Positions 25,437-28,002 of a stretch of 36,447 nucleotides of DNA are shown piece after piece (positions within the stretch are counted from its first letter, which is position 1; each line of letters opens with the position of its first letter). The stretch comes from a virus (lineage: Duplodnaviria > Caudoviricetes), in the IMG/VR virus record IMGVR_UViG_3300013767_000052, positions 1-36,447 of that record. One strand, written 5' to 3'. The notes beneath the pieces are model-generated. The model saw only the letters and a list, made by a program, of their open reading frames with translations. It made no database searches and was not told the origin of the DNA. Both the position numbers and the translations under genes were made by a program.

Positions 25437-25973
25437 CTACGGCTTCGATGCGCGCAGCGCGTGTTCTTGAAAATCGAAGAGTTGAGAGAACACGCGCTGC
25501 CAGAAACCTACCTTCGCGAGACGTTCGTCCGGATATCCCATCGCCCGCATCTGCTCGTTGTGGCACATGACGTTGAGCACGTGCAGGACCGGCGGCTCTT
25601 CGGCCTCGATCGTTAGCCGTTCGCCGCGTACCGCCAGCAACACGTTCTCATCCAGCACCGAGAGTGCCATGCGTTTTTCAAGACCGATGAACTGCCGCGC
25701 GAAATCCGCATGCGCTCGCGCGCGCTGCGACGATCCCACGACCAGATTGATCGCCGACAGGACCGTGACCAGCCCGGCCGCGACGAGCGCGACGACCTTG
25801 TATTGCTGTTCGAGCACACCGTAGACCGCCGTCGACCCGAAGATCACCGACAGCATGTTGGTCATCTGGTCGAGCCGATCGAAAAACGCGCGGCGGCGGT
25901 TGTGGTAGCGGATCGACCGGCGAATGTCGAAGAGCTGGTTATGCCACTGCAGGTCAAGACTGGTCGTTCCCAT
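25437..25973 (-). CDS. Two-TM membrane protein, SLATT-like
   Basis: RSIRYHNRRRAFFDRL followed by two TM helices, then a helical tail (RARAHADFARQF...IEAEEPP). Confidence 0.7.
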   Translation of the reverse strand: MGTTSLDLQWHNQLFDIRRSIRYHNRRRAFFDRLDQMTNMLSVIFGSTAVYGVLEQQYKVVALVAAGLVTVLSAINLVVGSSQRARAHADFARQFIGLEKRMALSVLDENVLLAVRGERLTIEAEEPPVLHVLNVMCHNEQMRAMGYPDERLAKVGFWQRVFSQLFDFQEHALRASKP

Positions 25974-26142
25974 TGCTGTTATCCCGTGTCGGCAGCGGCG
26001 GAGGCGGCGGCAACGTGTTGACCACTTCGAAACCCTTGTTGAAATCGTTGTAGTCGTGCCGCTCACCGTAGTCGACGCTGTCGCGCGTCGGCACGCCCTT
26101 GTTAGTGGAATCGGAGTTCGGATTGTGCTTCGGATTGGTCAT
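25954..26142 (-). CDS. Small disordered Pro-rich protein (62 aa)
   Basis: ATG start, Asn/Asp-rich with LPPPPPLP, overlaps the next gene by 20 nt. Confidence 0.6.
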   Translation of the reverse strand: MTNPKHNPNSDSTNKGVPTRDSVDYGERHDYNDFNKGFEVVNTLPPPPPLPTRDNSNGNDQS

Positions 26143-26204: not shown

Positions 26205-26990
26205 TTATCGCTTACGCCGCGCCGTGAGATCACGCCACACGCCGGGTTTGCCGTCCGACGTCACAACGCACTCGATGTCGGGGGCTTCGGAGTTGTCGAT
26301 GATGGCGCCGACCGCGTACGTTTTCCCCGCGTACTGGCAGCCGCCGAATGCCGCCTGGAGCTGATCGATTGTTTGATGGCTCGCCCAGGCGTAGTAGCCG
26401 AGGATGACGCCGCCCAGAAGCGCCGCGAACAACGTGACTTTCAGCATCGTTCGAGTGGACGCGAGCTGCGCCTGGGTGACCTGAAGTTGCGCTTGAAGTG
26501 GCACGGTCAAGTCGGGGCCACGGTCTTCGCAAATGTTGTCCCGAGCAGGCGCCGATTGGGCTGCGCTTGGTGCTGTGGACTTGATCGCTACGCGGTTTAG
26601 CCAGGAGGTCAGGTATTGCTCGATGTCGACATACCGATCGCTGCGAATCCACTTGATCCGCTTCGCGCCCGCGCGGGCCAGCACGGTTCGCGAAATCTTC
26701 AGGACGTCATTTTCGGTTGCGTCGGCGATCTGGCCGACCAGCTCCATGATCACGCCCTTCTGGTGATTGTTCACGAACTCGACTTCGGATTCTTTGGCTC
26801 CGAACTGCACATTCAGGACATTGCTGTTCGAAATCGGTACGCCATGGTTGACGATGTCGCGGCCGGCGACGTTTCCGATTGAGCCCGCCCGGATATTTAC
26901 AGAGCGATCAGCGATGTTTGCTTCTCCAGCCTGTATGGCTTGCCCGACCGCCTTGTTGAACTCCTGTTTCCCGTTAGCGTCATTGGTCAT
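26205..26990 (-). CDS. Membrane protein: N-terminal beta-rich motif, ORF6C-like helical domain, coiled coil, TM, small Cys-pair extracytoplasmic domain
   Basis: ATGA overlap with the repressor; TM VTLFAALLGGVILGYYAW; C-terminal CQYAGKTYAVGAII...IEC resembles DUF1496-type domains. Confidence 0.75.
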   Translation of the reverse strand: MTNDANGKQEFNKAVGQAIQAGEANIADRSVNIRAGSIGNVAGRDIVNHGVPISNSNVLNVQFGAKESEVEFVNNHQKGVIMELVGQIADATENDVLKISRTVLARAGAKRIKWIRSDRYVDIEQYLTSWLNRVAIKSTAPSAAQSAPARDNICEDRGPDLTVPLQAQLQVTQAQLASTRTMLKVTLFAALLGGVILGYYAWASHQTIDQLQAAFGGCQYAGKTYAVGAIIDNSEAPDIECVVTSDGKPGVWRDLTARRKR

Positions 26991-27421
26991 TTTCTCTTCT
27001 TGCCTTTACCGAAAAAGCTGATTCCCTGCTGATCGAGGTTCCCCTCGACCTTTACGGCCTGTCCTACCGAACCGTGAAATACCTGCTCCTGGCGAGTCGC
27101 GCTCTTCGTCGTGCTTGCGGCCGCAAGCGCACCGATTGCGGCGGCTTTTACCTCTAAAGACGCGGCACGAAAGCGCGCTAACAACTCGGCCTCGTCCCCA
27201 ACAAGAGCCGCGCTCGACCGCACGCCGGTCACAACGTACTGAACGTCCACGCCGACTTTCGATAGAGCGTTCAAGTACACGGCATCGGGAGTGCTTTCTC
27301 CCTTCTCATATGTGATCTGCGCGCGCTTCGAGGCCTCGCCAATAGCCGCGAACTGCGTCTGACTCATATCGAGCCGCTCGCGCTCCTCTTTCAGGCGCGC
27401 CCCGATCTCAGATTTCTGCAC
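26987..27421 (-). CDS. Prophage repressor, XRE-family HTH, no S24 peptidase domain
   Basis: IGARLKEERERLDMSQTQFA...YEKGESTPDAVYL...GVDVQYVVTG; divergent from the ner-like gene; GAGG RBS before the GTG at 27421. Confidence 0.9.
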   Translation of the reverse strand: MQKSEIGARLKEERERLDMSQTQFAAIGEASKRAQITYEKGESTPDAVYLNALSKVGVDVQYVVTGVRSSAALVGDEAELLARFRAASLEVKAAAIGALAAASTTKSATRQEQVFHGSVGQAVKVEGNLDQQGISFFGKGKKRK

Positions 27422-27459
27422 AAAAACCTCTTGCAAGGTGCAGAAATCTGCACCATACT
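27407..27459 (+). promoter_or_regulatory. Early promoter with two operator copies
   Basis: TTGCAA (27431-36), 17 nt, CATACT (27454-59); palindrome GGTGCAGA-AA-TCTGCACC (27437-54); second copy CTCAGATTTCTGCAC (27407-21) over the repressor start codon. Confidence 0.8.
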
Positions 27460-27538: not shown

Positions 27539-27721
27539 GTGACCGTACCCAAATTCAAAGCCCAGCTCCGCAGCCAAGGCAAGACCATCCGTCAATGGGC
27601 CGAAGAGAACGAGTTCCCGCCCAGCGCCGTTTACCGCGTTCTTAACGGCGTCGACAAGGCCCATTTTGGCCGTGCGCACGACATCGCCGTGAAGGCCGGC
27701 ATCAAGCAAACCGCCGCCTGA
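27539..27721 (+). CDS. Ner/Cro-like DNA-binding protein (BcepMu gp16-like)
   Basis: GGAGG RBS plus GTG; GKTIRQWAEENEF...VYRVLNG...GRAHDIAVKAGIK. Confidence 0.88.
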   Translation: MTVPKFKAQLRSQGKTIRQWAEENEFPPSAVYRVLNGVDKAHFGRAHDIAVKAGIKQTAA

Positions 27722-27765: not shown

Positions 27766-28002
27766 TCATCGGCGCGACCGCGCTTCGTCCAGCATCTGCA
27801 CCATCTGCAGGACGACTTCGCCGCCCCGAGCCTGGATCGGATCAGGTAACTGGCAACGTGCGGCCCCAAAGCGGCGTAGCGCCTGCGAAAAGCGCACGCC
27901 GTCGACGCAGCCCTGTTCCTCCAGGTGGCCGATAAGCCGGAGCATCGTCTGGCCGACAGCATCAACTCGTGCCGCCAACTCACTGAAATCCGAGTCCGTC
28001 AT
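27766..28002 (-). CDS. Small hypothetical protein antisense to the early operon
   Basis: 78 aa helical-looking ORF that exactly fills the gap between two + strand genes; purine-rich RBS. Confidence 0.65.
   Translation of the reverse strand: MTDSDFSELAARVDAVGQTMLRLIGHLEEQGCVDGVRFSQALRRFGAARCQLPDPIQARGGEVVLQMVQMLDEARSRR

Follow-up and report, generated by a model that had tools for sequence, protein, structure and literature searches.

Introduction

The motifs of BASS amyloid signaling pairs are described as compositionally biased, rich in Q, N, G, V and I and poor in K, P and L. Cross-seeding BASS pairs share 43-56% identity, Bell domains are rare or absent in Proteobacteria according to the same description, and in HET-s and some BASS pairs the extra repeats mark the effector, not the sensor (10.1101/2020.01.06.895854). 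Bab/Agp (BASS11), found in an E. coli prophage, is an abortive system with an amyloid trigger; the words "repressor" and "HTH" were absent from the accessible main text on it (10.1101/2024.11.07.622273). The SinR/SinI interaction uses residues conserved between the two proteins (PMC3163267). Many temperate phages have repressors that are not RecA-cleavable, and their inducers are largely unknown. In BcepMu, early genes rose 1.7- to 12.8-fold after peroxide, a response reported with its mechanism unexplained (PMC2830190), and the available text on phiE255 names its gene46 simply as a repressor-like gene (PMC2920897).

No phage repressor was found in the accessible portions of two BASS papers, a 2026 review (PMC13506858) or ASMscan (PMC12261475). 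Nor was any description of a motif pair linking a repressor tail to a partner head found in the literature searched, mainly outside subscription journals; pairs of this kind could figure in the supplements to the BASS papers. The window analysed here is the whole 36,447-nucleotide stretch of the virus record IMGVR_UViG_3300013767_000052. Comparison of its repressor and the adjacent gene with those of relatives suggests that a co-varying tail and head form a previously undescribed physical link, through which a predicted membrane sensor would likely activate the dormant virus.

Results

Gene layout and candidate operators

The window is a BcepMu-like transposable prophage. Its repressor gene pointed away from a gp16-family gene and the transposase operon, and the gene of the protein termed the partner below came next. 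The features of the region were:

26205..26990, minus strand: partner gene, BcepMu gp18 relative, 261 aa (86% to BcepMu gp18; phrog_6521)
26987..27421, minus strand: likely immunity repressor, BcepMu gp17 relative (tblastn 67% to BcepMu gp17, 72% to phiE255 gp46; HTH_3)
27406..27421, no strand: candidate second operator copy, imperfect, covering the probable start of the repressor (forms a perfect 13-nt inverted repeat with 27438-27450)
27438..27453, no strand: perfect 6-4-6 palindrome, candidate operator (sole zero-mismatch copy in the window)
27539..27721, plus strand: gp16-family gene, divergent, opening the early operon, which would be shut off by the repressor (TIGR04111, E 4e-22; phrog_925)

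The repressor start was probably the GTG at 27421, with a TTG at 27436 as the alternative (ORF 26987-27436), giving 144-149 aa. Both ORFs lay on the minus strand and the partner ORF overlapped the repressor stop by 4 nt, in agreement with the positions and the coupling given in the first-pass annotation; every peptide quoted there was also found as written. The overlap would imply co-expression of partner and repressor in the lysogen. BcepMu gp17/gp18 and phiE255 gp46/gp47 were direct orthologues of the pair with identical layout, annotated merely as a repressor (cro/cI repressor for BcepMu gp17) and a hypothetical or membrane protein; the window differed from both phages in recognition helix and operator type. 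No sigma-70-like site was found in a promoter scan, and terminators were at chance level. RNA-library contigs of a related phage from four runs covered the region, and the repressor-partner junction was spanned by one contig in X1 and X6; such contigs can show neither transcription nor its level and were left out of the evidence.

By sequence, an HTH gene divergent from the early operon with candidate operators between them has the arrangement of a phage immunity repressor. A perfect palindrome was present at the equivalent place in nine of 14 close relatives, and its sequence tracked the recognition-helix type (one sequence for six relatives, others for L006 and for L016/L102), supporting the repressor label. 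The five relatives with a BcepMu-type helix had no palindrome of the 6-4-6 form. Operator palindrome and recognition helix changed jointly across L001, L002, L006, L007, L008, L016, L101, L102 and the window. These comparisons point to at least four immunity types, which appear to assort independently of the tail/head class described below.

Several other ORFs were seen around the pair. The gene at 25437-25973 (minus strand), in the position of BcepMu gp19, resembled SLATT 2TM defence effectors (SLATT_4, E 3e-5, below the cut-off; PADLOC 2TM effector, E 7e-5) and was restricted, among all collected loci, to BcepMu-like loci, L118 and L179. Between it and the partner gene lay a 62-aa N/D/P-rich ORF (25954-26142, minus strand; phrog_27674) that is unannotated in BcepMu. 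A 78-aa ORF (27766-28002, minus strand; phrog_25550) ran in the opposite direction to the early operon, like BcepMu gp14. In L167, L374 and L382, a second HTH gene stood directly after the repressor in place of the partner.

Repressor tail and partner architecture

The repressor consisted of a Cro/CI-type HTH, a second helical part and a flexible tail. Its AlphaFold2 (AF2) model was helical up to residue 112, and residues 114-149 had no confident structure. RecA-cleavable CI/LexA repressors have a C-terminal S24 peptidase domain, whereas the repressor of the window, with 144-149 aa and a tail that is unstructured in the model, has none; the lack of an autoproteolytic domain noted at first pass was confirmed in Pfam, where no peptidase matched at E<=0.1. 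An ESM Atlas search with the tail gave no usable match. The elements of the two proteins were:

27014..27091, minus strand: repressor tail motif, class A, with an FHGxVGQ core and then a basic end (predicted disordered, pLDDT<50; co-variation)
26913..26969, minus strand: partner head repeat 1, residues 8-26, the copy matching this repressor's tail
26844..26900, minus strand: partner head repeat 2, residues 31-49, VAGRDI type, nearest to the family-wide head by scores and alignments
26802..26834, minus strand: third beta-prone, N/V-rich segment, residues 53-63, kept in close homologues
26583..26783, minus strand: three-helix domain homologous to Flk repeats (Flk_N-like), residues 70-137 (confident in AF2; profile comparisons)
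26382..26444, minus strand: one predicted transmembrane helix, preceded by a short helical stalk (hydropathy; AF2 long helix 164-214)
26235..26339, minus strand: small two-Cys beta domain, DUF1496-like, predicted periplasmic (DUF1496 profile matches; conserved residues)

Partner residues 1-64 were predicted disordered, and tail and head are thus each predicted disordered as monomers (AF2). When aligned with the partner head, the repressor tail scored 41 in BLOSUM62 (p=0.0017 against 20,000 head shuffles), and among the 217 ORFs of the window the partner start was its best match in another ORF (next 35), which bears out the terminal match reported at first pass. Head repeat 1 fitted the tail (38) better than repeat 2 (19). 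Against 44 other heads, repeat 2 had a mean score of 30.5, and shuffled versions 18.9 with a maximum of 20.5. The match in the window was moderate, its partner ranking 5th-6th of 45 for its tail. Three of the eight identical residues of tail and head used identical codons, and no DNA repeat between the two copies was present among the 20 largest repeat families.

The partner had one hydrophobic segment (residues 183-203, Kyte-Doolittle 1.72), and C218 and C241 were invariant among 26 homologues; a single predicted transmembrane helix and a two-Cys C-terminal domain, as first annotated, therefore stand. C218, G228, C241 and W252 were each conserved at 90% or more in the partner family, of which 18 of 103 members matched DUF1496 at E<=0.01 (best 8.3e-5); no function for DUF1496 was found in the accessible parts of its literature. 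The family comprised 134 clusters at 50% identity (E<=0.001), with the simple head pattern in 105 and the two-Cys pattern in 82. Partner bodies were highly variable across loci, some having zinc ribbons, some two-helix membrane parts and others no hydrophobic segment, and the head was the constant element. The segment was missing in 6 of 45 partners, at least one of which is a miscalled ORF. The term "membrane sensor" given at first pass is thus not universal. No PADLOC match was obtained for the partner.

Co-variation of tail and head

A total of 415 loci were collected (416 with the window), and a repressor was present in 408 of the 416. After removal of loci with no alignment anchor, less than 500 nt downstream or no next ORF, 342 were usable and formed 126 clusters at <55% tail identity. 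The next gene was defined as the longest same-strand ORF starting -35 to +220 nt, a rule that miscalls some. Tails and heads were classed independently of the own-pair score, by a third-best foreign score of at least 36, a threshold of our own choice. Tail and head occurred together in 45 clusters, tail only in 23, head only in 9 and neither in 49 (Fisher p 1e-8).

The 45 motif-bearing pairs were non-redundant and came from beta- and gamma-Proteobacteria. Own pairs scored 46.0 on average and foreign pairs 28.4, and the maximum of 200,000 permutations was 35.4. The own partner ranked first for 9 tails, in the top three for 25, in the upper half for 43 and in the lower half for 2. In 20 of 22 disjoint nearest-relative pairs, taken from a repressor-core tree, own combinations exceeded swapped ones. 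In 14 BcepMu-like loci, not all of them independent (the proteins encoded by L009 and L017 are identical), the tail class equalled the head class in every case, 11 being class A and 3 class B. Co-variation by pair, the check proposed in the first-pass annotation, was thus strongly positive (46.0 vs 28.4; 20/22; 14/14). The switch between A and B in tail and head was independent of operator type and partner body: L007 and L008 had the operator of the window, yet class B in both genes; L102 had a different operator and class A; and in L016, with a partner body 82% identical to that of the window, the class was B. The median within-pair identity was 53%.

Identical codons at identical residues made up 161 of 376 in own pairs (0.43) and 865 of 2083 in GC-matched foreign pairs (0.415). 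The codons show no sign of recent duplication, and the lack of excess indicates that the match is maintained at the protein level. Re-scanning of the 23 tail-only clusters gave a clear match in 8, and in L046, L114 and L174 the matching ORF was non-adjacent, 250-670 nt downstream. About 15 of the 23 had no convincing partner up to ~2.5 kb downstream, some of them not being real motifs; tails may therefore work alone. Matches were found in 27 of 65 scored genome loci, in seven orders of beta- and gamma-Proteobacteria, fractions that are not population frequencies because the queries contained tails. No fused repressor-partner was detected in the 126 loci or among 7,996 long candidates scored (327-2000 aa, which is weak evidence), and Flk-like ORFs were never fused to repressors. 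The pair at L057:2837-3295 belonged to a motif class of its own, K-rich and unrelated, in which tail and head matched almost exactly (score 72), suggesting that the pairing can be re-invented. Across these sequences the motif pair is real, widespread and co-evolving, laid out as an amyloid-signaling pair and apparently outside the named families.

Motif cores were enriched in G, N, Q, V and I and depleted in L, K and P. The amyloid or homotypic pair proposed at first pass fits in layout, composition, within-pair identity and predicted disorder; however, the Pfam RHIM, PP and HET-s profiles matched none of 20 tails, heads or tailed repressors. A strict G-phi-Q-phi-G core occurred in both motifs of one pair alone (L354) and was absent from those of the window, which has AIQAG only. 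RHIM-like cores in both genes (xVQIG with xVQVG, xVQAG or xLQIG) were seen in L354:2756-3265, L129, L181, L336 and L339, and several partners of these pairs had no hydrophobic segment.

Homology of the partner domain to Flk

The helical domain had been called ORF6C-like but is better described as a Flk repeat: ORF6C matched none of 103 family members at E<=0.01, and the domain was a Flk repeat by hhalign. ORF6C (PF10552) matched 3 of 65 other partners weakly (E 0.004-0.017), and a remote link may exist. Against bacterial Flk repeats, the window domain reached an hhalign probability of 97.3 (E 2.6e-11), and both repeats of Flk (Fluke; NF007987), a flagellar export-switch regulator, were matched by this three-helix domain. 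A profile built on it matched both repeats in three of three Flk proteins, and an ESM Atlas pointer to Flk_N, with scores <0.9, is taken as a lead. NCBIfam Flk was matched by 36 of 103 family members at E<=0.05 and by 20 of 28 partners chosen for helical domains (best E 2.5e-16); the window's partner alone gave no direct Flk match. In other phages, tail-anchored partners were one whole Flk repeat plus anchor (E to 2.5e-16), and one of them matched both Flk halves in two of three genomes. Of five genomes searched with the Flk profile, three had exactly two hits, the chromosomal flk and a repressor-adjacent phage gene. Of the 126 loci, 35 carried Flk-like ORFs: 33 of the 68 with a tailed repressor and two of the 58 with an "untailed" one, these two having beta-rich tails slightly below the threshold; many head-bearing partners had no such domain.

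The phage proteins differ from NF007987, which is defined by a whole-protein cut-off, two repeats and a C-terminal anchor: relatives reached at most 60 of 353 bits, and Flk has two double repeats, whereas the partner has one domain plus the outer DUF1496-like domain. The head motif was missing from the three bacterial Flk proteins examined (third-best score 25-29; threshold 36). Chromosomal Flk resembled a tandem duplication of a tail-anchored phage partner minus the head motif (L416-L418, L420-L432).

In structural comparison (VIA-align), the helical domain lay near small three-helix bundles, within the chance range for helical bundles and hence a lead: 8qe9 chain 1A (Z 8.0, rmsd 1.6, 61 aligned) and the lambda Red-beta C-terminal domain (Z 7.5, rmsd 1.8, 59 aligned). 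Neither the repressor nor the partner model matched at E<=0.001 in a PDB fold search, a viral structure library gave a single unnamed match at 1.7e-4, and a PDB sequence search with the 103-member partner profile gave nothing useful.

Discussion

Like-to-like binding is the simplest explanation of pairwise co-variation at the protein level, and physical binding of tail and head is probable. In the mechanism that we favor, the two would bind by beta-strand stacking, probably of an amyloid type. An envelope cue would cluster the partner, its head predicted to lie in the cytoplasm, and the clustered partner would capture the repressor and pull it off the operators, lifting early-operon repression without RecA cleavage. 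If the partner is made along with the repressor, its default state must be off, which a nucleation barrier would ensure. This capture mechanism is offered tentatively, its chance as a whole falling somewhat short of even. Among its parts, cross-beta assembly comes close to an even call. Given binding, the direction towards induction is slightly favored because partner bodies vary like sensors, some partners cannot be membrane effectors and a co-made partner needs a default-off state. Variable bodies with a constant head and repressor are expected of diverse sensors with one output. Motif position, read as in Bell/NLR and Bab/Agp pairs, would make the partner the receptor and cast the repressor as effector; the repeat number would assign these roles the other way round. 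The capture mechanism has against it the lack of a Pfam amyloid match, a RHIM-type core that is strict in one relative, the ~15 tails without a partner, the 5th-6th rank of the window's match, the 6 of 45 partners lacking a hydrophobic segment and the extra repeats on the partner. A Mu-like phage may instead lose repression by proteolysis, as in phage Mu.

The co-variation would be explained equally well if the tail were the repressor's oligomerisation strand and the head its mimic, a small stoichiometric heterocomplex tuning or buffering repression as SinI does on SinR, with interaction residues conserved between the two (PMC3163267). Tails with no nearby partner suggest a role in self-association, and two candidate operator copies would profit from cooperative binding. 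However, the SinR/SinI interface is helical, whereas the motifs of the present family are rich in G, N, Q, V and I and poor in L; heads occur as tandem pseudo-repeats, and a binder produced constitutively from the operon of the repressor would have to be switched off by separate means. We regard such mimicry as unlikely. Defence in the reverse direction, in which the repressor is clustered by phage DNA that enters or replicates and then seeds the partner, whose membrane action excludes the invader or aborts infection, is quite unlikely. It draws on the multiple repeats of the partner, as on HET-s and some BASS effectors (10.1101/2020.01.06.895854), on the Bab/Agp precedent (10.1101/2024.11.07.622273) and on the SLATT-like 2TM gene downstream in the window, but the N-terminal motif, which belongs to the receptor in the known pairs as described, here belongs to the partner. 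Some partners are also soluble, PADLOC did not recognise the partner, and the SLATT-like gene has the narrow distribution given above.

Both motifs could also bind a shared host factor (a protease, chaperone or export gate) with no mutual contact. In two-hybrid assays FlhA is bound by Flk, which holds back the export switch (PMC13344023), and the Flk-like domain of the partner could act on flagellar export. However, both motif copies could not jump together on a fixed host target, and BcepMu-like phages that are nearly identical fall into two motif classes (L016), with many classes overall; many head-bearing partners also have no Flk-like domain, which only 35 of 126 loci carry. A host factor is improbable. 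That the match has no function and is a relic, left by gene conversion or a local duplication and travelling in a single block of DNA, is highly improbable: tail and head are adjacent in the DNA and evidently move as a block, but identical codons are not in excess, none of the 20 largest DNA repeat families joins the copies, and the match persists in pairs that are not adjacent and inside every one of many divergent classes.

Extended to Mu-like and related phages of Proteobacteria, the capture mechanism would amount to a widespread amyloid-type lysis-lysogeny switch in which swappable membrane sensors capture the cognate repressor by nucleating a cross-beta fold, the motif class is a second specificity code independent of operator immunity, and Flk is a domesticated, duplicated sensor; this larger picture is doubtful. 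For phages whose repressors escape RecA, and for the BcepMu peroxide response (PMC2830190), the motif pair is a concrete candidate that is cheap to test, and near-identical phages that naturally differ in class, A or B, are ready specificity controls. If the assembly is amyloid, amyloid signaling would extend from cell-death effectors to a transcription factor and a decision in a virus life cycle. The Flk homology hints at a phage origin of this flagellar regulator.

Compared with known systems, the pair shares with SinR/SinI of Bacillus subtilis a Cro/CI-type repressor and a neighbor with the same interaction segment. SinI is a small soluble helical protein and the SinR/SinI interface is helical, whereas the shared segment here is beta-prone and usually membrane-linked. 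With the amyloid pairs BASS1-10 (Bell/NLR), HET-S/NWD2 and RHIM, as far as described, it shares adjacent genes, a C-terminal against an N-terminal motif of ~20-25 residues, G/N/Q/V/I enrichment, ~50% within-pair identity and one-sided pseudo-repeats. The pair family shows the end-to-start motif match, the better matching of own than foreign partners, the composition and the pair identity of BASS, but in place of an NLR/TGP receptor and a Bell/TIR/CHAT/hydrolase effector it has an HTH repressor and a Flk-like protein; a Bell/HeLo domain is missing, the C-terminal motif is carried by the transcription repressor of a phage, and the hosts are Proteobacteria. With Bab/Agp (BASS11) it has in common a motif pair in the prophage of a unicellular Proteobacterium and the end-to-start layout, the amyloid state being suggested here by sequence likeness. 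In Bab/Agp, the effector has a Bell-like death domain and the sensor is a TPR-GreA-PIN protein, whereas the pair of the window sits in the core lysogeny switch.
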